Shown here in pieces: positions 3,930 through 63,245 of a stretch of 64,000 nucleotides of DNA; the stretch's first letter is position 1, and each line of letters begins with the position of its first letter. The notes beneath the pieces were generated by a model. That model searched no databases, had not been told where the DNA came from, and saw nothing but the letters and a program-made list of their open reading frames with translations. The stretch comes from an uncultured Acidobacteriota bacterium (lineage in GTDB: Bacteria > Acidobacteriota > Vicinamibacteria > Vicinamibacterales > Fen-181): positions 19,951-83,950 of the forward strand of contig CAVORY010000004.1 of assembly GCA_963698725.1 (NCBI GenBank). The letters are read 5' to 3'. The translations under genes and the position numbers were made by a program.

Positions 3930-4121
3930 GGGCTCACGGCTCAGGGCTCAGCCGCCTTCGCCCGAGGGGCTTCGGCGCGCCAAGGGGCTCGCGGCTCGAT
4001 CAGCGTGACACCGTGACCGCGTGACGGTCTTCTTCTATCTTCTATCTTCTGTCTTCTATCTTCTATCTTCTATCTTCTATCTTCTATCTTCTGTCTTCTG
4101 GCTTCTGGCTCCTGGCTTCTA
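3930..4121. repeat. Composite intergenic repeat element, copy B (inverted orientation relative to copy A)
   Basis: gggctcacggctcagggctcagcc is followed by the core gccgccttcgcccgaggggcttcggcgcgccaaggggctcgcggctcgatcagcgtgac, a near-exact reverse complement of the copy A core. Then come about 13 heptamers tcttcta/tcttctg/gcttctg, running into the dus stop codon. Confidence 0.9.
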
Positions 4122-5207
4122 TCCGGCGACCTGCACCCCGTCGTCCCTCCCGACCCTGTCGATGTCTGCCGCCGGTGGCGCGGCTTCGGGGTCCACAGGG
4201 TCGTTCGCCAGCAGACGCTCGGTGATCCAGGCGTGGGCTGCCTGGTCCGCTCGGGCGAGCAGGCGCTCGAGCGGCGTGCGGCCGAACGTCATGTCCTCGC
4301 GGGCCTGCATCCCGGGCCACGATCCGTCCGGCCGCCGCGGAGCGTACCGGCACCAGAAACCGAAGTGCCAGCGCGTGAAGTCGGCCACCTGCGCGCGGCC
4401 GCGGTCGTCGTCTCCCCAGTGCTCGAGCGCGAGACTCACGTAACGGCGGTAGACGGCCAGCCGATCCCCCGCCGCCAGATCCCGATAGCCCTCGTTCATC
4501 TCCCGGTACAGCCACGGCTTGATCAGCACGCCCCTGGCGGCCATCACCGCCGCGCAGCCCGAGCGGGCGCGCGCGGCGTCCGCGTCGTGCGGGAACAGCA
4601 CGTCGCCGTTCCCGATGACCGGCACGGGCACCGCCCGCACGACTTCACCGACGGCGTCCCAGTCCGCGGCCGTCCTGTACCGGGCGTCCCGCGTCCGACC
4701 GTGCACGACGAGCGCCGCGGCGCCGCCGTCCACCGCCGCCTTCGCCACGTCCAGGTAGTTCAGGCTGCTGGCGTTCCACCCGAGTCTGAACTTCACGGTT
4801 ACTGGGATCCCGGGGACCCCGCGCACCATCTCCTCGACGATGCGCTGCACGCGCTTCGGCTGACGGGCGAGAGCCGCGCCCAGCCCCTTGCTCGTGAAGT
4901 AGTCGATCGGGCAGCCGAGGTTCAGATCCACGAACTCGGCGCCCCGTGATACGACCAGCGCCGCCGCCCAGGCCATCTCGTCCGGCTGGTTGCCGGCCAA
5001 CTGCACGCCGAAGCACGGCTCCTCCGGCGCCCGGCGGATCAGCGCGAACTCGGAGCGACGCTTCTGCTTCAGCCGGCGCGCGACGGTCATCTCGCTGACG
5101 GTCACGCGCGCGCCCAGCTCCACGCACAGCCGCCGGTACGGCAGATTCGAGCCTTTCGTCATCGGGCCGAGGACAAGGGCGCCGGGCAGGTGTGACAGGA
5201 AGGACAT
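4119..5207 (-). CDS. tRNA-dihydrouridine synthase (Dus family)
   Basis: ORF 4119..5282 trimmed to ATG (comp. 5205-5207); the first 25 codons of the long ORF read through the heptamer repeat. Motifs FVDLNLGCPIDY, VHGRTRDARY and GNGDV are Dus TIM-barrel motifs. Confidence 0.85.
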   Translation of the reverse strand: MSFLSHLPGALVLGPMTKGSNLPYRRLCVELGARVTVSEMTVARRLKQKRRSEFALIRRAPEEPCFGVQLAGNQPDEMAWAAALVVSRGAEFVDLNLGCPIDYFTSKGLGAALARQPKRVQRIVEEMVRGVPGIPVTVKFRLGWNASSLNYLDVAKAAVDGGAAALVVHGRTRDARYRTAADWDAVGEVVRAVPVPVIGNGDVLFPHDADAARARSGCAAVMAARGVLIKPWLYREMNEGYRDLAAGDRLAVYRRYVSLALEHWGDDDRGRAQVADFTRWHFGFWCRYAPRRPDGSWPGMQAREDMTFGRTPLERLLARADQAAHAWITERLLANDPVDPEAAPPAADIDRVGRDDGVQVAG

Positions 5208-5214
5208 GTGGGGC

Positions 5215-5441
5215 GAGAAGCTAGAATCCAGAATCCAGAATCCAGAATTCAGAAGACGACAGAAGACAGAAGACAGAAGCAAGTCAGACGGTCACGACGT
5301 CACGCTGATCGAGCCTTGAGCCCTGAGCCTTGAGCCCTGAGCCGTGAGCCGTGAGCCCTGAGCCCTGAGCCGTGAGCCCTGAGCCCTGAGCCTTGAGCCT
5401 TGAGCCGTGAGCCGTGAGCCCTGATCCTTGAGCCTTGAGCC
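5215..5441. repeat. Composite intergenic repeat element, copy C
   Basis: ctagaat/ccagaat/tcagaag/aagacag heptamers span 5215-5283. A short core follows: gtcagacggtcacgacgtcacgctgatcgagcc. About 18 tandem tgagccc/tgagcct/tgagccg heptamers then run to 5441. Confidence 0.9.
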
Positions 5442-19935: not shown

Positions 19936-20231
19936 GAAGAATCCAGAATTCAGAATTCAGAAGACAGAAGACAGAAGATAGAAGACAGAAGAAAGAGCGG
20001 GACCGTGGCGCGGTCGCGGTGTCACGCTGATCGGGTTGCGGGTCGCGGGCCACCAGCAGCCACGCGCCAGGCGCCCCTCGGCTACTCTCGGGGCGGCCCT
20101 GAGCGAAGTCAAAGGGCCGGCAACGGACCGGAGATCACGCCTGCGACACGTGTGCCCAGACGACGCCTCGCAGAACCCGCCTCGGACGTTCCGAGATCCA
20201 CTGCCAGCTGCCAGCTGAGAGCTGCCAGCTG
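19936..20231. repeat. Composite intergenic repeat element, copy F: CAGAAGA heptamers, core, CTGCCAG heptamers
   Basis: 19936-19996 reads gaagaat ccagaat tcagaat tcagaag acagaag acagaag atagaag acagaag. The core contains gtgtcacgctgatcgggtt and gccctgagcgaagtcaaaggg. 20201-20231 reads ctgccag ctgccag ctgagag ctgccag. Confidence 0.85.
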
Positions 20232-20257: not shown

Positions 20258-21307
20258 GTGGACGTGGCCCTGTTCGATTATCATCTCCCACCCGAGCGCA
20301 TCGCGCAGGAGCCGCCCGCCGACCGTGAGTCCGCGCGGCTGCTCGTCCTCGATCGCACGTCGGGCGCCATCGTCACCCACTCCAGTGTCCGCGCCCTTCC
20401 CGACTTTCTCCGCCGGGGCGATCTCCTCGTCGTCAACGATACCAAGGTGTTTCCCGCGAGGCTGCTCGGACGCCGCGACCCGTCGGGCGGCGCGGTCGAG
20501 TGCCTGCTGATCAGGCGCCTGGAGGCCGATCGATGGGAGGCGCTGATGCACCCGGGGCAGAAGCTGCATCCCGGGGCCAGGGTCGTCTTCCGGCGTGAGG
20601 AACTCGAGCTCCGCGCCGAGGTGCTCGAGCAGCACTTCCACGGTCGTCGGACCATCCGCCTGTGGAGCGAAGCCGCCGAAAACGTCGACGCGGTGGTCGA
20701 TGCGATCGGGCACGTGCCGCTACCGCCCTACATCCACCGACCTGACGACCCGCAGGACTGCGAGCGCTACCAGACGGTGTACGCCAGCGTGAGGGGATCG
20801 ATCGCGGCGCCGACGGCCGGGCTCCATCTGACTCAGGGACTGATCGACCGACTGGCCGCCGCCGGCATCGACCGCACGGCGATCACGCTCCACGTCGGCT
20901 ACGGCACGTTCAAGCCGGTTCGGGTCGACCAGGTGGAGGAGCACCGGGTCGATGCCGAATTGTTCGACGTGCCGGCCGACGCGGCCTCGGCCATCAACGC
21001 GGCAACCGACGATGGCCGACGCGTCGTCGCCGTCGGCACCACGACGACACGCGCGCTGGAGGCGTCCGGGGAGCGGGCGCAGGGACGCGTGGCTGCCGGC
21101 TCGGGGACGACCGAGTTGTTCATCCGACCCGGGCACCGTTTCACGGTGGTCGGCGGCCTGTTCACCAACTTCCACCTGCCGAAGTCGTCGCTGCTGATGC
21201 TGGTGTGCGCGTTCGCCGGGCGTGAGGCGGTGCTCGGCGCGTACCGTGAGGCCGTCGATCGAGGCTATCGGTTTTACAGCTACGGCGATGCGATGTTGAT
21301 CCTTTGA
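20258..21307 (+). CDS. queA: S-adenosylmethionine:tRNA ribosyltransferase-isomerase
   Basis: GTG 20258. Motifs: DYHLPPERIAQEP, LLVVNDTKVFPARL, TLHVGYGTFKPV, AVGTTTTRALE, GYRFYSYGDAML. Confidence 0.9.
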   Translation: MDVALFDYHLPPERIAQEPPADRESARLLVLDRTSGAIVTHSSVRALPDFLRRGDLLVVNDTKVFPARLLGRRDPSGGAVECLLIRRLEADRWEALMHPGQKLHPGARVVFRREELELRAEVLEQHFHGRRTIRLWSEAAENVDAVVDAIGHVPLPPYIHRPDDPQDCERYQTVYASVRGSIAAPTAGLHLTQGLIDRLAAAGIDRTAITLHVGYGTFKPVRVDQVEEHRVDAELFDVPADAASAINAATDDGRRVVAVGTTTTRALEASGERAQGRVAAGSGTTELFIRPGHRFTVVGGLFTNFHLPKSSLLMLVCAFAGREAVLGAYREAVDRGYRFYSYGDAMLIL

Positions 21308-22387: not shown

Positions 22388-22464
22388 GGCGGTGTAGCTC
22401 AGTTGGTTAGAGCACGCGGCTCATATCCGCGGAGTCCGGGGTTCAAGTCCCTGCACCGCCACCA
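22388..22464 (+). tRNA. tRNA with CAT anticodon (elongator tRNA-Met, or tRNA-Ile2 substrate of TilS), CCA encoded
   Basis: Manual cloverleaf: acceptor GGCGGTG/CACCGCC, D arm GCTC-AGTTGGTTA-GAGC, anticodon arm CGCGG-CTCATAT-CCGCG, variable GAGTC, T arm CGGGG-TTCAAGT-CCCTG, discriminator A, CCA. The G1-C72 pair argues against an initiator. Confidence 0.9.
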
Positions 22465-22703
22465 TATTCACCGCTCGCCCTGACTGCGCTCGCTCTCGAC
22501 ATCTTCCAGGGCCCCGATCGTGAAACGTATGAAGCGGGTTTTCGAGGGTCGGCTCTGGAAGCTGTCTAGGGTCCCTTCGGGGTTCCTCTGGCCCTGGAAG
22601 ATGTCGAAGACGACGCCGAAGGTGTCGTCCAGAAACAGCGTGCCGGCAGCCAGTGAAGCTGCGCCGCACGGCTGCCCGGCGCTTTGAGTCGCAGCTTCAC
22701 TGG

Positions 22704-24130
22704 ATGCCTGTCCTCTCCGAGCGAGTCTGCCGGACGATCGATCGATATCGCCTGCTTCCGCCTGGCGCCGGCGTGCTCGTGGCCGTGTCGGGCGGTGCAG
22801 ATTCGACCGCTCTCGTTTACCTGCTTCGTGAGGCCTCGTCCCGGCTGGGGATCCAGCTCGCGGGCCTGGCGCACTTCAACCACCTGCTGCGGGGCGCAGC
22901 GTCGGACGCCGACGAGCGGTTCTGCCGGGATCTGGCCGGCCGCCTGGGCCTGCGGTTCGAGGCGGATCGCGGCGACGTGCGGGCCGCGGCCGGGCGGCGG
23001 GGCACCTCGATCGAAGACGCCGGGCGGCAGCTCCGGTACGAGTTCTTCGAGGAGGCGCGCGAGCGGACGGGCGCGAGTCACGTGGCTGTTGGCCACACCC
23101 GGGACGACCAGGCGGAGACGGTGCTGCTGAATCTCCTCCGGGGCGCCGGGACAGGCGGACTTGGCGGCATGCCGGTACGCCGCGGGTCGATCGTCCGGCC
23201 GTTGCTCGACTGCACGCACAGGGAACTGGTCGACTGGTTGGCCGAGTCGGAGATCGCGTTCCGCGAGGACGAGACGAACCGGGACCGGCGGTTTCTTCGG
23301 AACCGGGTCCGGCACGAGATTCTCCCGGCGCTGACGGCGGTCGTGCCCTCGGCGGCGGATGCCATCGCGCGCGCCGCGGAGGTTACTCGGGTCGATGCCG
23401 AGTTCCTGGACGAACTGGCAGCCTGCGAGCTTGCCAGGATCTCGACCACCCCGAGCGAAGGCCTGTGGGCCCTCGACGCCGCGGCGCTGGCCGCCATGCC
23501 GACCGCTCTCGGCCGGAGAGTGGCACGGCTGGCGCTCGGCGCCGGCTCGGGCGGCGAATTCGTCGGGTTCGAGCACACCCAAAGGGTCCTCGACCTGGCG
23601 CGAGGGGTCGTCGCCGGGTCCGTCAGGCTTCGGGGCCAGAGGGTATCCCGGACGGGGGCGGGGCAGATCGTCTCGGCGCCCGCCCGGGGACGCAGCCGAA
23701 AAGACCAAGGATTCGGCGAGTTTCGAGCCATTTCTCGCGTTCTGTTGTCTATTCCAGGAGAGACGCCTCTGGGCGACGGGCGGGTTGTTTCGTGTGAGCA
23801 TCGCCCGGGCGGGATGGCCGTTCTGGATGAGGTGCTGGCCGGCGGAGACCGGGCGACCGCCGTGGTGGACGCCGACCGCGTCGCCGGGCTGGCGGTGCGG
23901 TCCCGGCGTCGGGGCGACCGATTCCGTCCGCTGGGGCTGGCGGGGCGCAAGACGCTCCAGGACTTCTTCGTCGATCGGAAGGTGCCCCGGGCCGAGCGCG
24001 ACCGGACGCCGCTGGTGGTCGACGCGGGCGACCGGGTCGTCTGGGTCGGGGGACACGCGATTTCCGGGGATTTCCGCGTCACCGCGGGCACGCGGGCCGT
24101 GGTAATCTTGCAGTTGAGGGGAGAACGAGG

Positions 24131-24134
<4 letters not shown>
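22704..24134 (+). CDS. tilS: tRNA(Ile)-lysidine synthase
   Basis: [16 protein letters not shown] (PP-loop SGGxDS), [30 protein letters not shown] 22704 was chosen; GTG 22653 is also in frame. Confidence 0.85.
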
Positions 24135-34178: not shown

Positions 34179-34343
34179 TCGGGGCTGACGATGGTCAGTC
34201 GGGGCTGACGATGAAGGGTCGGGACTGACGATGAAGGGTCGGGACTGACGATGAAGGGTCGGGACTGACGATGAAGGGTCGGGACTGACGATGAAGGGTC
34301 GGGACTGACGATGTCAGTCGGAACTGACGCGGTCAGTCGGGAC
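34177..34343. repeat. 20-bp tandem repeat array (GGTCGGGACTGACGATGAAG), about 8 copies, between convergent genes
   Basis: Four identical units span 34217-34296, flanked by diverged units (agtcggggctgacgatggtc, ggtcgggactgacgatgtca, gtcggaactgacgcggtca). The array starts in the nth stop codon and ends in the last codons of the DUF72 gene. Confidence 0.95.
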
Positions 34344-35307
34344 GATTCGGGATGCCCAGATCGAGCAGCGACGATGGCGAGACGATGTCTCGGAGTTCCG
34401 GGTACGCGTCGAGCATCTCCTGGCGATACTCGCCCGGTACGGGCTGACCGAGCTCGTGCTTGAGGATCGCCGCGTTGACCACCGCCTTGGCGGCGAAGTG
34501 GTTGTTCAGGTAGAGATAGGCCTTCCGCTCATCCGAGCGGCCGACGGTCGCGGCCGCCGCGAACGGCTTCAGCTCCTCGCGCGAATACAGGTAGTTGTAG
34601 CGATCTTCCGCCGCGTCTGGCGACCACCATTGGGCGGCGTTGCGCCCGTGCAGGCGCATGTACGAGAAGCAGTGGAGGTCTGGCGCCACATCCTGGCGAA
34701 TCGAGGACCGGAACTTGGGTTCGTCGATTTGCACCCAGGCGGCCTGGAATCGTCCGAGCAGCTCCGTCGTGGTCGCGGTGGCGTCGCTCCATGAGCGGTG
34801 ACGGAGTTCGACGGCGACGGGGTAGTCGCGAAGCGTGTCGAGGAGACCGGCGACGTACTCCAGAGATTCCTGGTTGCAGTGGAACCCTGGCGGGAACTGC
34901 ACGAGCACGGCCCCCAGCTTGCCGCCCGCGACGATCGGATCGACCCCCGCCTTGAACAGATCCGCCTCGCCCGGCGCCGGCCGCGGGATGGCGGAGGCCG
35001 ACCGGGCCGTCCCCGCGGCCGCCGGCCCCCGCCCGACCGGGGTGACGTGGGTGAACGCCTGGTAGAGCTTGACCGAGAACTCGAAGCCCGCCGGCGTCTG
35101 CGCGACCCACCTGGCGGTCGTGTGAGCGCTCGGCTGGCGGTAGAAGGTCGAATTCACCTCGACGGTATCGAAGTGCTCCGCGTAGAACGACAGTTCGTCA
35201 GACGCCCGGAAGCCCCTGACGCCGCGCCGCGGATAGAAGATCCCGCTCCACGTCCCCCGCCCCTCGGGGTAGCTCCAGCCGGACGTTCCGATACGGATAC
35301 TCGTCAT
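34333..35307 (-). CDS. DUF72 domain-containing protein
   Basis: ORF 34333..35424 trimmed to ATG (comp. 35305-35307); the longer ORF reads through 16-bp repeats. Motifs: IRIGTSGWSYPEGRGTWSGIFYP, FDTVEVNSTFYRQP. Confidence 0.8.
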   Translation of the reverse strand: MTSIRIGTSGWSYPEGRGTWSGIFYPRRGVRGFRASDELSFYAEHFDTVEVNSTFYRQPSAHTTARWVAQTPAGFEFSVKLYQAFTHVTPVGRGPAAAGTARSASAIPRPAPGEADLFKAGVDPIVAGGKLGAVLVQFPPGFHCNQESLEYVAGLLDTLRDYPVAVELRHRSWSDATATTTELLGRFQAAWVQIDEPKFRSSIRQDVAPDLHCFSYMRLHGRNAAQWWSPDAAEDRYNYLYSREELKPFAAAATVGRSDERKAYLYLNNHFAAKAVVNAAILKHELGQPVPGEYRQEMLDAYPELRDIVSPSSLLDLGIPNRPD

Positions 35308-35392
35308 CTTGCGATCTTGCGAAGTGGCGATCTTGCGACCTGGTGACCTCGCGACCTGGTGACCTCGCGACCTGGTGACCTCGCGAAGTGGT
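35308..35392. repeat. Tandem repeats: GATCTTGCGA words followed by (GACCTGGTGACCTCGC) x3
   Basis: Sequence is cttgcgatcttgcgaagtggcgatcttgcgacctggtgacctcgc gacctggtgacctcgc gacctggtgacctcgc gaagtgg. It lies between the DUF72 start and the ArsC-like stop. Confidence 0.9.
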
Positions 35393-35404: not shown

Positions 35405-35785
35405 TCAGTTCGCGCGATCCCCACCTCGCAATACCGCGAGATTCTGTTCCGCCGTCAACCCTTCGTACTGGGCCTTGTCGAACCCGAAAACCACCCGCCG
35501 TCCCGCGACGAGGACGGGTCGCTTGATCAGGTTCGGCTGCTCGAGCATCAGGTCGATCGCCTGCTTCCTGGTCGCCGGAAGCGGCCGTTCCTTCCAGACC
35601 GGGCTGCGCCGGCTCAGGAACTCGAGGAAGCGGCGCTCGTCGACGTGCTTCTCGAGGAAAGCTCGAGACGGAGGCTCCTTGACGATGTCCCGGTCATCGA
35701 CGTCGATGCCGGCCTCTGCCAGGAAACTCCTGGCGTTGCGGCAGGTGGTTCAGGTCGGTTTGCAGTAGAAGAGCGGCTTGGCCAT
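35405..35785 (-). CDS. ArsC/Spx/YffB-family thioredoxin-fold protein with in-frame TGA at the CxxC position (candidate selenoprotein, UxxC)
   Basis: Not in the ORF track. My translation is MAKPLFYCKPT[TGA]TTCRNARSFLAEAGIDVDDRDIVKEPP...DLMLEQPNLIKRPVLVAGRRVVFGFDKAQYEGL..RAN*. The TGA is at comp. 35750-35752. The frame is open and family-like on both sides of the TGA. Confidence 0.6.
35707..35743 (-). promoter_or_regulatory. Candidate bacterial SECIS hairpin downstream of the in-frame UGA
   Basis: The mRNA reads UGCCG-CAAC-GCCAGGA-GUU-UCCUGGC-AGAGGC-CGGCA. The upper stem is 7 bp, the lower stem 5 bp, GU is in the apical loop, and the loop lies about 21 nt 3' of the UGA. Confidence 0.45.
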
Positions 35786-35828
35786 GGGACGATCATAGCC
35801 GGCCACCGCTACACTACAATACGGAAGA

Positions 35829-36470
35829 ATGCTGACGGTGAACGAGGTCTTCCATTCGATCCAGGGCGAGTCCACCCACGCCGGGCGTCCATGCGTGTTC
35901 GTCCGGCTGACCGCCTGCGACCTGCGTTGCGCATGGTGCGACACGCCCTACGCGTTCACGGAGGGGCGCAAGCGCGAGGTCGCCGACGTGATGGCCGACG
36001 TGGCGTCGTACGGATGCCGGCTGGTCGAGGTGACGGGTGGCGAGCCGCTTCTGCAGCCGGACGTGTACTCGCTCATGCAGGGCCTGCTGGACGCCGGATA
36101 CGAGGTGCTGGTCGAGACCGGTGGCCACATCTCGATTGAACGCGTGCCGGCCGGCGTCGTCCGAATCATGGACGTCAAGTGCCCCGGCAGCGGCGAGGCC
36201 GGGAAGATGTGCTGGGAGAATCTCGCGAGGGTCGGCCCGCGTGACGAGGTCAAGTTCGTGATCCGCGACCGGGCGGATCACGAGTACGCGAAGGCGGTCA
36301 TGCGGCGAGGCGACTGGGCGTCCCGCGTGGCCGCGATCCTGTTCTCGCCCGTGCACGGCCAGTTGCCACCGGCCGAACTCGCCGCCTGGGTACTGGCCGA
36401 CAGGCTGCCGGTCAGGGTACAGCTGCAGGTGCACAAGTACATCTGGCAGTCGGGGACGCGCGGCGTCTAA
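35829..36470 (+). CDS. queE: 7-carboxy-7-deazaguanine synthase (radical SAM)
   Basis: VFHSIQGEST, CVFVRLTACDLRCAWCDT (CxxxCxxC), EVTGGEPLL. Confidence 0.9.
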   Translation: MLTVNEVFHSIQGESTHAGRPCVFVRLTACDLRCAWCDTPYAFTEGRKREVADVMADVASYGCRLVEVTGGEPLLQPDVYSLMQGLLDAGYEVLVETGGHISIERVPAGVVRIMDVKCPGSGEAGKMCWENLARVGPRDEVKFVIRDRADHEYAKAVMRRGDWASRVAAILFSPVHGQLPPAELAAWVLADRLPVRVQLQVHKYIWQSGTRGV

Positions 36471-36605
36471 GGAGGAGACCGCGATTCGGGATCGCGGCAG
36501 GCAAGGGTCCGTCGGCCTGCCGCGACTCAGTATCGCGGTCTCTCGGATAGTCGGGCGGCCGAACCCGATCCGGTTCGGGTCTGCCGGCGAAAAGGGAGAG
36601 GGTTC

Positions 36606-37355
36606 ATGTTCGCTCGGCCCCGCGCCATCGTGCTCCTGAGCGGCGGCCTCGACTCGGCCACCGCTGCGGCCATCGCCCGGAGCGACGGATTCGACCTCTT
36701 CGCCCTGACGATCGCCTACGGCCAGAGGCACCGCGTCGAGGTCGAGGCGGCGAGGGCGGTGGCGCGCGCCCTGGGCGCGGCGCGGCACGTGGAGCTGCAG
36801 GTGGACCTGTCGGCATTCGGCGGGTCGGCCCTGACCGACCGCATCGACGTGCCGAAAGACCGCGACCTGGAGGGGACCGGCATCCCCGCCACCTATGTGC
36901 CCGCGCGAAACACGGTCTTCCTGTCGCTGGCGATGGCGTGGGCGGAGGCGGTGGGAGCGCACGACATCTACATCGGCGTGAACGCGCTCGACTACTCGGG
37001 CTATCCGGATTGCCGGCCCGAGTTCATCGCCGCGTTCGAACGGCTGGCGGCGCTCGCCACGAAGGCCGGCGTGGAGGGCGCGACGCTCCGCATTCACGCG
37101 CCGCTGATGCGGATGACCAAGGCGGAGATCATCGGGCGAGGGATCGAATTGCGGGTGGACTACGCCCTGACGCACAGCTGCTACGATCCCGACGCTGGCG
37201 GCGCGCCGTGCGGCCACTGCGACAGCTGCAGGCTTCGAGCGAAGGGATTCGCCGAGGCGGGCATCGCCGATCCGGCGTTGAAGGACGGGCGGGTTCGCGA
37301 AGGCCACCAGGCGCCAGCCGCGAGCCGCAGGCCGCCAGCCGCGGGGGGGGCCTGA
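36606..37355 (+). CDS. queC: 7-cyano-7-deazaguanine synthase
   Basis: [13 protein letters not shown] (PP-loop), [17 protein letters not shown] (Zn cysteines). Confidence 0.9.
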
Positions 37356-38802: not shown

Positions 38803-40429
38803 TCAGTGGTTGAATTCGTGGGGGACGTTCTTGTCGCTGGTATTCCGCACGAAGGTGGCCAGGCGGACGATGGCTTCGTCGGTGGCGGCGTCGATCGCCG
38901 CCTGGGGCGCGGTGAAGTTGTTGGCGATGATCGAGAAGACGAGCGGTTCGCCGTTTGCCGACGTCACGTAGCCGGACAGCGCGCGGACGTTCGCAATCGA
39001 CCCCGTCTTCGCGCGCACGTTACCGGCCGCGGCGGTGCCAGCGAACCGGCGCGCAATCGTCCCGTCCTCGCCGCCGACCGGCAACGCCGCCAGGAACGGC
39101 TCCTTGTGCCGCGGGTCGACGTGCATCTGCCGCAGGATCGCCACCAGCATCTCCGCGCAGAGGTAGTTGTACCGCGACAGCCCCGAGCCGTCGGCCAGGG
39201 CGTAGGCCTCGCGCGGGATGCCCCACGCATCGAGCACTTCCTTCACCGCCGTCCGGCCGGCGTCCGGCGTGCCCATGCCCGAGCGGCCCCCGAGGGTGCG
39301 CAGCAGCGTTTCGGCGTACTGGTTCTGGCTCGCCTTCATCAGGACGCGCGCGATCTCCCGCAGCGGCGCAGACTGGTGCGAGAGCAGCATGCGGGTCGGC
39401 TCCTCCGGCGGGACCGCGTAGGCCTCCTCGGTACTCGGCCGCGGCGCCGGCGACGCGGATGCCCCGCGCGACGAGCACCTCGCGGAGAACTCGCGCGAAA
39501 TACAGGGCGGGCCGGTCAACTGTCGCCGACCGCAAGACGTCTTTCGCGCCAGCGGGCACGGTGCCGCTTACGACCAGCCGGTTGGAGCCAGCGAGCCTGG
39601 AGACCTCGAGGTCCGCGTCACCGCCAGACGACGTCGTCACGCGCGGATCGACGATGAGGCCGCTTTCGATCGGTCGCACTTCGATGACAGCCGGCTGGCC
39701 CGCCGACATGCCTGGCTTGATCACCACATCGGCCACGCTCTCGTTGAACTGGAGCGCCGACACGCCGGCGGCATAGCCGGACCCGAGGTAGTCCCATGAC
39801 CATCCCGCACCCAGGGTGTCCTGACCGAACGCCCGGGCGTCGGCCACAATCCGGCCCGTGATCCCGTCGAGGCCAGCGGCCCGCAGCCGGTCGGCCCACT
39901 CCTCGAACACGCGGGTGGCGCTGCCGCCGCGGCCTCCGATAGTCGGATCGCCTGAGCCGACGACGACGAGATCGCCTTTCAGAATGCCGTTCACGACCGG
40001 GGCGGCCGTGACGAGCGTCGTCTCGTAGGTGTAGTCCCACCCCAGCCGTTCCGCCGCCGCGGCCAGCGTCACGACCTTCATGTTCGACGCCGGCATCATC
40101 AGCTTCGAGGCGTTCGCGCTGTACAGCGTCTCGCCGCTCTCGAGCGACTGAACCAGGACCGCCCACTGCATGCGGCCAAACGCGGGGTTTTCGAAGGTCT
40201 GGGCGAGGTCGGCGCGCAGGGCATCGATTCCAGCGCGCGAGGTCCGAACGGTGCCCGAGGAAGGCGGCGGCGGTGTCGGCAGGGGCCGCGCCCCCGTTGC
40301 CGTCGCAGGACCCGGAGGCGGAACGGTGGCCGGCGGCGTCCGCTTGACGCAGCCGCCGCCGAACGCCAGGACGCCGAGCAGAACCGCGGCGGCGAACCGC
40401 GTGGATGGGCCCTGGCTGGAGTGGGACAT
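38803..40429 (-). pseudogene. dacB: D-alanyl-D-alanine carboxypeptidase/endopeptidase (PBP4, peptidase S13) split by a net +1 frameshift
   Basis: ORF 39020..40429 carries a lipoprotein-like signal and PASNMKVVTLAAAAERLG (SxxK), and is credible down to ..VLVARGIRVAG. ORF 38803..39519 continues the family (..EEAYAVPPEEPTRMLLSHQSAPLREI..SQNQYAETLL..KTGSIANVRALSGY). The junction is about 39425-39460. Confidence 0.75.
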
Positions 40430-62420: not shown

Positions 62421-63245
62421 ATGCCCCGCACCCTGAAGATCGTCCTCGCCTACGACGGAACGGACCTGGTGGGCTGGCAGCGCCAGGCCGCCGGCGCCTC
62501 CGTGCAGGCGCGCCTCGAGGACGCGCTGTCGGCCATCGAAGGCCGCCCGGTTGCCGCCGTCGGGGCCGGACGCACAGACGCGGGGGTGCATGCGCTCGGC
62601 CAGGTGGCCAGCTGCCGTATCGACCACCCGCTGCCCGTCGTACGCCTCGCGGCGGCGCTCAACGCGATGCTGCCCGGCGACATCCGAGTCCTCGAGGTCG
62701 CGGAGGTCGATGGCGCGTTCCACGCGCGTTACGGGGCGCGGCTGAAGACCTACCGCTATCTCCTCCTCAACAGCGCCGTCGTCAGTCCCTTCGAACGTCG
62801 GTACGTGTGGCACGTGCCGCAGCCGCTGGACATCGGGGCGGTGGCGGCCGGCGCCATGTCTCTCGAGGGAGAACACGATTTCGCCGCGCTGCGCGCCGCG
62901 GGCAGCGCCACGAAGACCACCGTGAGGAGGCTGACGGCGGTGACCGTGCGCGAGTCCACGTCGGCAGAGGTGTTCGGCGGCAGCCTGGCTGTTCGGCGCG
63001 CCAGCGGTCCGGGCCGGATCGTTGCCTTCGAGTTCACCGGCACCGGCTTCCTGCGTCACATGATCAGGAACGCGGTCGGCACCCTGGTCGAGATCGGCCT
63101 CGGGAAGCGGGAGCCGGCCTGGATGGCGGAGGTGCTGGCGTCCGGGGACCGGGCGCAGGCCGGCCCCACCGCTCCGGCCCAAGGCCTGTTCCTCGTCGGC
63201 GTCGTCTATGACCCGTCCCTGAGCCCTGCCCGCCTTCGCGCGTAG
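62421..63245 (+). CDS. truA: tRNA pseudouridine(38-40) synthase
   Basis: LAYDGTDLVGWQRQ, GAGRTDAGVHALGQV (catalytic Asp), FLRHMIRNAVG. Confidence 0.9.
   Translation: MPRTLKIVLAYDGTDLVGWQRQAAGASVQARLEDALSAIEGRPVAAVGAGRTDAGVHALGQVASCRIDHPLPVVRLAAALNAMLPGDIRVLEVAEVDGAFHARYGARLKTYRYLLLNSAVVSPFERRYVWHVPQPLDIGAVAAGAMSLEGEHDFAALRAAGSATKTTVRRLTAVTVRESTSAEVFGGSLAVRRASGPGRIVAFEFTGTGFLRHMIRNAVGTLVEIGLGKREPAWMAEVLASGDRAQAGPTAPAQGLFLVGVVYDPSLSPARLRA

Follow-up and report, generated by a model that had tools for sequence, protein, structure and literature searches.

The window analysed in this study, a 64-kb stretch of DNA from an uncultured Acidobacteriota bacterium (positions 19,951 to 83,950 of contig CAVORY010000004.1, assembly GCA_963698725.1), carries on its minus strand a small gene of the ArsC/Spx family whose reading frame is interrupted at codon 12 by TGA and which, judged from its sequence, is very probably decoded as a selenoprotein, selenocysteine (Sec) being inserted at this codon. 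Translation of the complementary strand from 35785 to 35405 has given MAKPLFYCKPT, the internal stop and then TTCRNARSFLAEAGIDVDDRDIVKEPPSRAFLEKHVDERRFLEFLSRRSPVWKERPLPATRKQAIDLMLEQPNLIKRPVLVAGRRVVFGFDKAQYEGLTAEQNLAVLRGGDRAN up to the terminal stop, the product ending in GGDRAN. The initial annotation of this DNA had described a 126-codon minus-strand frame with a single internal TGA, and the translation reproduces it. It had also described the gene as invisible in the six-frame track, and this is likewise the case: the mechanical list of open reading frames (ORFs) holds only fragments in this frame, one of 64 aa ending at the TGA and one of 47 aa from an internal ATG, and the six-frame view is blank here because the TGA splits the frame into two short pieces. 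The coordinates of the gene, of its recoding elements and of the neighbouring genes are collected in Table 1.

Table 1. Features of the ArsC/Spx-family locus and its neighbours, in window coordinates.
Feature	Position	Strand	Remarks
Coding sequence of ArsC/Spx-family (seleno)protein	35405..35785	-	126 codons including the putative Sec codon; ATG 35783-35785, stop TGA 35405-35407; based on translation
In-frame TGA, codon 12, predicted to be read as selenocysteine	35750..35752	-	first position of the U-T-T-C redox motif
TGC, codon 15, putative resolving Cys of UxxC	35741..35743	-	Cys in 82/82 distinct orthologues; aligned with Spx Cys13
SECIS-type hairpin GCCAGGA-GUU-UCCUGGC, codons 18-23	35718..35734	-	conserved core CCAGG/CCUGG 35719-35733; apical loop GUU 35725-35727
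Lower hairpin extension UGCCG/CGGCA	35709..35745	-	in the window's own minimum-energy fold; not conserved
queE (7-carboxy-7-deazaguanine synthase)	35829..36470	+	divergent; NCBIfam TIGR04349 QueE 267.8 bits, below the cutoff of 300
queC	about 36606-37355		after queE; Pfam QueC 249.5 bits
DUF72-family gene	34333..35290 (start approximate)	-	downstream of the ArsC-like gene; Pfam DUF72 191 bits

A protein search with the query has returned about 1,700 homologues, and the full-length ones read KPTCTTCRNAR at the motif, which places the TGA column at the first Cys of CxxC; the two closest protein matches are gene calls truncated at the N-terminus. To obtain the DNA of related loci, one genome per species was scanned with query-derived peptide patterns not covering codon 12, and all eight genome loci found, from Acidobacteriota/Vicinamibacteria metagenome-assembled genomes at 61-86% identity, have TGA at codon 12. 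Metagenome contigs were scanned with two patterns (QPNLIKRP and the RSPV block), which sit in the C-terminal half and are therefore unable to bias the result at codon 12; among the best 80 loci, which were the ones examined, 79 have TGA and one (L033) has TGT. The total is 87 TGA codons in 88 related loci from genomes and from soil and sediment metagenomes, with 60-94% protein identity. The initial annotation had aligned the TGA with the first Cys of the Spx-type CxxC, and this position is confirmed both by KPTCTTC in the Cys orthologues and by Spx Cys10 in HMMER alignments to solved Spx structures. In one orthologue (L008:3001-3351, from a metagenome-assembled genome, contig of 2 Mb) the TGA and the hairpin described below are both retained, and an unrelated frameshift, which may be an assembly error, follows about 50 codons 3' of the TGA.

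Codon statistics were compiled from 82 distinct coding sequences and hairpin statistics from 77 distinct sequences. The ATG start occupies the same position in all 82, and together with it K9, P10, T11, T13, T14 and C15 are invariant while the third positions of these codons are free to vary. The pooled ratio of nonsynonymous to synonymous polymorphism (pN/pS) amounts to 0.24 over codons 2-11 and to 0.33-0.56 downstream, and the ten codons before the TGA are under purifying selection. This ratio and the invariant residues with freely varying third positions lead to the conclusion that the residues before the UGA and those after it are translated in a single frame; the family-like sequence on both sides of the UGA, which the initial annotation had pointed out, is thus upheld by conservation and pN/pS on either side. 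In-frame starts after the TGA are not conserved, the first of them lying at residue 29, 57 or 80 depending on the relative. The proteins of the orthologue group are about 110-126 aa long. A C-terminal tail of 16 residues in the window protein (111-126, window 35405-35455, TAEQNLAVLRGGDRAN) is without counterpart in most orthologues and is common to a few close relatives (P0117 ends in VRTGDRANW, and the L009 and L010 matches reach residue 126). Its end, -RAN, is loosely like the LAN degron at the C-terminus of B. subtilis Spx, probably by coincidence.

In the public databases (NCBI, ENA and JGI) the TGA-bearing relatives are annotated as pieces of 54-93 aa, and the NCBI calls for the L004 and L005 contigs are truncated fragments as well. 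Moreover, the 90% cluster of a 55-aa call of a TGA form (P0124) also holds proteins of 260 and 573 aa (P0125 and P0128), which suggests that some assemblies or gene callers fuse such a fragment to adjoining ORFs.

Downstream of the UGA the messenger RNA can form a short hairpin of the selenocysteine insertion sequence (SECIS) type, whose stem starts 15 nt and whose loop starts 22 nt after the UGA in the window. The initial annotation had placed the same hairpin about 21 nt downstream; the hairpin is present, and the distance given is that of the loop rather than of the stem. Counted from the UGA, the first 60 nt fold with -24.3 kcal/mol (z = -2.95), a value equalled by none of 200 shuffles. 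In the 77 distinct sequences the pairs C26-G40, C27-G39, A28-U38 and G29-C37 are invariant, and pair 30-36 covaries, being A-U in 55, G-C in 20, G-U in two and unpaired in none. Pair 31-35 is standard in 65/77, and the outer G-C pair (G25-C41) forms in 25/77. RNAalifold independently retains the same 5-bp core as the pair counts. The extension by UGCCG/CGGCA, which the initial annotation had taken as part of the structure, does form in the window's own fold and is not conserved among relatives; it was rejected as part of the conserved element in view of the low count of G25-C41 and the loss of everything beyond the 5-bp core in RNAalifold. Covariation and the percentage of paired positions lie above all 500 shuffles and all slid controls, though limited weight is given to the covariation statistic because just one pair truly covaries.

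The codons of the hairpin are stronger evidence for it than the covariation, since they are frozen. Ala is encoded by GCC in 82/82 sequences, Arg by AGA or AGG in 82/82 and never by CGN, Ser by AGT in 76/76 and Leu by CTG in 82/82; in the neighbourhood of the hairpin, codons for Thr, Pro and Lys vary freely and Arg16 is encoded by CGC, CGA, CGG or AGG. Two of these frozen choices are rare in the genes of the window, where 8.4% of the codons for Arg are AGR and 3.2% of those for Ser are AGT. Further, where the amino acids do change the structure is preserved, ARGAL being encoded as CCAGAG-GUG-CUCUGG and ARRFL as CCAGGA-GGU-UCCUGG. The loops of the 77 distinct sequences are GUU (62), AGUUA or AGUUC (10), GGU (2), GUG (1), GGUCA (1) and GGUCG (1), start 21-22 nt after the UGA and always follow the pattern G[U/G]N or N-G-[U/G]-N-N. 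The GGUC of the last two is presumably also the loop sequence of the E. coli fdhF element.

According to the published model of the bacterial SECIS element, the loop has 3-9 nt with G in its first two positions (usually followed by G or U), the stem has 4-16 bp, the spacing from the UGA is 16-37 nt and the minimum free energy is -7.5 kcal/mol or lower (PMC13188914). The window agrees with this model through a 7-bp stem, the loop GUU, a spacing of 22 nt and -12.2 kcal/mol for a 30-nt segment containing the hairpin, and the rules on loop, stem and spacing hold for 77/77 distinct orthologues. The SECIS-compatible geometry with GU in the apical loop, as seen by the initial annotation, is therefore in accordance with the published model. 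The same annotation had proposed to compare orthologues for Cys or TGA at this column and for retention of the hairpin, and had named truncated or degraded relatives without a conserved stem-loop as contrary to its reading; the comparison has given TGA in 87/88 loci and the hairpin in all 77 distinct orthologues. In a scan of the window for other TGA-interrupted ORFs and for other combinations of UGA with the CCAGR/YCUGG motif, only the ArsC-like gene qualified.

The Cys-containing relatives give an independent view of the site. Four Cys-containing proteins were traced to DNA and found in the gene order of the window, namely PBP4, an AlaX-type editing protein, QueC, QueE, the ArsC-like gene on the opposite strand, DUF72, a peptidyl-prolyl isomerase (PPIase), Nth and a 2-hydroxyacid dehydrogenase, the PPIase following DUF72 in three of the four contexts and missing from the window. 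Because the gene order is the same, the Cys proteins are orthologues and not paralogues. At the place of the hairpin their DNA reads GCC AAG GCG TTC CTG ACG, GCC CGC GAG TTC CTT CGG, GCC AGA GGC TTC CTC GAG and GCC AGA GCT TTT CTC GCC, and none of the four forms the CCAGR/YCUGG stem. The sole Cys form among the 88 closest loci (L033:1258-1641, TGT) has a decayed hairpin, GCC AGA AGC TTC CTG G (GCCAGAAGCTTCCTGG), with an A-C mismatch and the loop changed from GU to GC, which is the decay that would be expected after a recent Sec-to-Cys change. The Cys forms L092 and L093 likewise retain the rare AGA codon for Arg. A neighbour-joining tree of 196 sequences, which serves as a rough guide, does not separate Sec from Cys forms but interleaves them in several blocks. 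Taken together with a hairpin that is identical in all Sec clades and with AGA codons that persist as relics in Cys forms, this interleaving suggests that the Sec form is likely ancestral in this Acidobacteriota (Vicinamibacteria-like) orthologue group and that it has repeatedly been replaced by Cys.

The assignment of the protein to the ArsC/Spx/YffB family, for which the initial annotation had proposed an alignment to Pfam ArsC (PF03960), was examined with Cys substituted for the internal stop, and this model matches residues 7-108 with 54.5 bits, where 24 are required. Among the NCBIfam models, Spx/MgsR (TIGR01617) scores highest with 73.8 bits, marginally under its cutoff of 75.05. Neither the model for the ArsC family (seleno)protein (NF041106; 19.6 bits, E 1.1e-3, cutoff 85) nor that for glutaredoxin-type arsenate reductase (TIGR00014; 36.3 bits, cutoff 106) reaches its threshold. 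In HMMER alignments to solved Spx structures, U12-T-T-C15 is in register with Spx C10-T-S-C13. The AlphaFold2 model (predicted local distance difference test, pLDDT, 87.6) has a strand at 5-8, a helix at 14-24, a strand at 30-33, a helical insert and strands at 91-94 and 97-100, the tail 111-126 being of low confidence. In this model residue 12 follows strand 5-8 and comes just before helix 14-24, which is the canonical active-site position of the thioredoxin fold. Foldseek has matched the model to Spx, YffB and ArsC-related structures with E-values of 2e-8 to 6e-5, the best of them (2e-8 to 1e-7) from Spx; on superposition, YffB/PA3664 and a Bacteroides ArsC-related protein have given template modelling (TM) scores of 0.75-0.81 and Spx 0.63-0.74. 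A sequence search of the PDB has drawn the same picture, and in both searches the glutaredoxin-coupled ArsC enzymes are the weakest matches of the superfamily.

From these features a mechanism can be proposed in which Sec-tRNA(Sec), brought by SelB, would translate the UGA of codon 12 as selenocysteine. The short hairpin within the coding sequence, with its stem 15 nt after the UGA, its core CCAGR/YCUGG and its loop starting with G-U, would recruit SelB. The protein would then act as a selenol/thiol oxidoreductase, in which Sec12 at the N-terminus of helix 1 may serve as the nucleophile and may form a selenenylsulfide with Cys15. All sequence-level predictions of the selenoprotein hypothesis that could be tested have turned out positive, and the hypothesis appears strongly supported. 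A functional small thioredoxin-fold selenoprotein of the ArsC/Spx/YffB type, carrying the U-T-T-C motif, decoded through SelB and a SECIS element and working as an oxidoreductase, is in our assessment a highly probable explanation of the locus as a whole.

The same Sec decoding could also serve a different function, that of an Spx-like redox sensor which binds RNA polymerase and uses the selenenylsulfide of UxxC as its switch. TIGR01617 as the best NCBIfam model, the leading Foldseek E-values of Spx structures and the register of UxxC with Spx C10-x-x-C13 would agree with such a role. The TIGR01617 score is, however, just below the family cutoff, and YffB and the Bacteroides protein superpose better than Spx. 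Moreover, when the window protein is aligned to chain G of 7F75 with HMMER, its Arg52 falls on Spx Gly52, and Arg is also found in most of the aligned relatives. In Spx, the G52R substitution is the classic mutation abolishing binding to the alpha C-terminal domain. The likeness to Spx claimed by the initial annotation holds for the CxxC register and fails at the glycine that contacts RNA polymerase, and because of this Arg an oxidoreductase is favoured over a regulator. In addition, the known selenoproteins are, to our knowledge, nearly all catalytic. A regulatory role is therefore rather improbable, and a function as an oxidoreductase, with the second Cys resolving a selenenylsulfide, is quite probable as far as family and motif can tell.

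Some observations weigh against Sec decoding or against the function attached to it. Family scans with NCBIfam and Pfam found none of selA, selB and selD among about 55 scanned ORFs of the window, gaps of the gene map included, and ARAGORN found no tRNA-Sec in the 64 kb, the only tRNA being a tRNA-Met; the initial annotation had likewise seen no sel genes in the window. None of selA, selB, selD and tRNA-Sec (the latter sought by ARAGORN) was found in the flanks of 52 related loci. Real covariation is limited to a single base pair, and the remaining pairs are invariant and hence individually uninformative. The bare 17-nt hairpin in its commonest A-U variant has -6.2 kcal/mol, which is weaker than the -7.5 kcal/mol threshold; over all variants, the bare hairpin reaches this threshold in 32/77 sequences. 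No match to Rfam SECIS models was obtained at gathering thresholds on the whole window or at E <= 10 on 35600-35800, a result of little weight since bacterial SECIS elements scarcely resemble one another (PMC13188914). As for the enzymatic function, it is read from family and motif alone. On the other side, Sec users are known in the phylum: Acidobacteria were credited in 2006 with four selenoproteins in three families (Zhang 2006, PMC1794560), and one of the Sec-utilising bacteria on which deep-Sep was tested is Occallatibacter riparius, for which three selenoprotein genes are known (PMC12013277). In the literature searched, nothing relevant was found that ties Vicinamibacteria or Luteitalea to selenocysteine.

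The main residual rival to Sec decoding is a read-through of the UGA by a suppressor or near-cognate tRNA (such as a tRNA(Sec)-like allo-tRNA of Acidobacteria or a Cys-inserting one), which would place Cys, Trp or another residue at codon 12 while the hairpin slows the ribosome or competes with RF2. Acidobacteria do have unusual 8/4 and 9/3 tRNAs that are possible missense or nonsense suppressors, and in some deltaproteobacteria UGA may be read by a tRNA(Cys) that resembles tRNA(Sec) (Mukai et al., PMC5389517); the failure to find Sec machinery in the window and in the flanks of the 52 loci would also suit this explanation. In 77/77 distinct sequences, however, the hairpin has the spacing, the stem and the G-U loop that the SelB-type SECIS model requires, and the recoded site is the nucleophilic Cys of CxxC, which is the classic site of Sec/Cys exchange. 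With TGA as the main stop codon, a general suppressor would also come at a cost, and if Cys were the residue needed TGC would suffice, so that TGA with a hairpin of rare codons in 87 lineages would be pointless. Read-through of this kind is thus unlikely. A reassignment of the genetic code was rejected as well, since TGA is the commonest ordinary stop and terminates 24 of the 47 predicted genes of the window. That the TGA is a true stop, whether of a pseudogene, through an assembly error or ahead of an N-terminally truncated product from an internal start, is most improbable, for although gene callers give 54-93 aa fragments for the relatives, the orthologue L008 is frameshifted and an apparent frameshift in the PBP4 gene of the window (see below) indicates an assembly that is not error-free, the identical TGA recurs in 87 sequences of independent origin, drawn from many samples and assemblers, purifying selection acts in the same frame on the codons before it, the internal start is not conserved and a truncated product would be without strand 1, the active site and helix 1.

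With Sec decoding as the favoured explanation, the gene can be compared with the systems already known. In 2006, ArsC-like selenoproteins of Desulfotalea and Desulfuromonas were described (PMC1794560), and UxxC and UxxS forms have been known since 2006-2008 (PMC1794560, PMC2398784). Reviews list an 'Arsenate reductase' with UxxS (COG1393 in 2022, TIGR00014 in 2026) and an 'Arsenate reductase-like protein' with UxxC (COG1393 in 2022, NF041106 in 2026) (PMC9312934, PMC13188914). The latter, and 'Arsenate reductase 2' of the Global Ocean Sampling (GOS) survey (cd03032 ArsC_Spx), share with the window protein the ArsC superfamily, the thioredoxin fold and an N-terminal UxxC (PMC2398784, PMC9312934, PMC13188914); they too were predicted from Sec/Cys pairing and a SECIS element and have many Cys homologues. 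The window protein, in contrast, stands outside the curated NF041106 family by its score (19.6 bits against 85), and it comes from soil and sediment Acidobacteriota and not from marine or deltaproteobacterial sources, the comparison with the GOS group being one by description. 'Arsenate reductase (ArsC) 1' (UxxS, TIGR00014/pfam03960) belongs to the same Pfam family and has Sec at the position of the catalytic Cys12 of R773 ArsC (PMC2398784, PMC13188914), whereas it is without the resolving Cys, and the UTTC protein of the window stays at 36.3 of the 106 bits needed for TIGR00014.

Among the proteins of known structure, B. subtilis Spx (PDB 1Z3E, 3GFK and 7F75) agrees in CxxC register and fold and gives the best sequence and Foldseek E-values, whereas the identity is 24-28%, Arg replaces the equivalent of Gly52, Sec stands for Cys10 and the lineage lies outside the Firmicutes. 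YffB/PA3664 (1RW1) and the ArsC-related 3GKX and 2KOK show the best superposition, similar sequence E-values and a similarly small size; in 2KOK, the single alignment of the YffB-type group that was inspected, a residue other than Cys stands opposite the resolving Cys of the window protein. For YffB and other ArsC-related proteins, a function of their own is not firmly established. The hairpin resembles the bacterial SECIS consensus of Zhang and Gladyshev (PMC13188914) in lying directly 3' of the UGA within the coding sequence and in its small G-[U/G] loop at 21-22 nt. It differs from the bacterial prototype in that only 5-7 bp are conserved, with no conserved lower stem or bulged U and with no match in Rfam. 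This prototype is the E. coli fdhF element.

The start codons of the ArsC-like gene and queE are 43 nt apart (window 35786-35828), and queE lies head-to-head upstream in 55 of the 62 related loci with enough flank, with start-codon spacers of 18-308 nt, as the only conserved neighbour. Since all loci are from one lineage, this adjacency may be plain synteny. A consensus scan of the spacer between the two genes found no sigma-70-like promoter. The DUF72 gene was considered as an obligate partner and rejected, being downstream in 19 of 56 related loci; in the Cys orthologues it adjoins or overlaps the ArsC-like gene. In the window, a perfect 16-nt tandem repeat (GCGACCTGGTGACCTC, 3.2 copies, 100% match, 35335-35386) lies between the ArsC-like stop and the DUF72 start, and the array reaches to about 35306 with adjoining degenerate 8-nt and 24-nt periodicity. 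It looks like an insertion specific to the lineage of the window, because the two genes abut or overlap in the three Cys orthologues with intact neighbour calls.

Farther away, the PBP4 gene (D-Ala-D-Ala carboxypeptidase, Peptidase_S13; minus strand, about 38803-40219) is split over two frames, with the N-terminal domain in one, the C-terminal part (SHQSAPLREIARVLMKASQNQYAE...) in the other and the switch at about 39400-39450 near GCCGAGTACCGAGGAGGCC. The protein is intact at 486-536 aa in related loci, and the split is either a pseudogene or an assembly indel. The window is also rich in tRNA-modification genes (dusB-like, queA, tilS, queE, queC and truA), which together with the one tRNA-Met occupy 4119-5282, 20258-21307, 22388-22464, 22653-24134, 35829-37355 and 62421-63245, and it contains the pyrimidine biosynthesis genes pyrR-pyrB-pyrC, pyrD with its partner subunit, and pyrE.

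The gene represents one more lineage within a known kind of selenoprotein and not a new kind of system, as UxxC thioredoxin-fold selenoproteins, the ArsC-like ones included, are already well known and no new type of biology is opened. The lineage is apparently not captured by current annotation models, and the curated NCBIfam model for ArsC-like selenoproteins misses it; that it stands apart from the catalogued ArsC-like selenoproteins is concluded from the failure of both curated models (36.3 vs 106 and 19.6 vs 85 bits). BSepDB may already list it. There is a small chance that it represents a third, uncatalogued selenoprotein lineage of the ArsC superfamily, ancestrally Sec and widespread in soil Vicinamibacteria-like Acidobacteriota, perhaps with a unique role as an Spx-like selenium redox sensor or as a dedicated reductant tied to the 7-deazaguanine (queuosine) genes queE-queC, whose short divergent promoter region it shares in 55 of the 62 loci. 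The locus shows clearly how standard annotation can fragment or drop a selenoprotein gene. The 87 Sec forms, the syntenic Cys orthologues and the Cys forms with relic codons make up a natural series for the study of Sec-to-Cys replacement and of a minimal bacterial SECIS element. For the organisms themselves, these outcomes indicate that a widespread group of soil and sediment Acidobacteriota probably decodes UGA as selenocysteine in a small redox protein.

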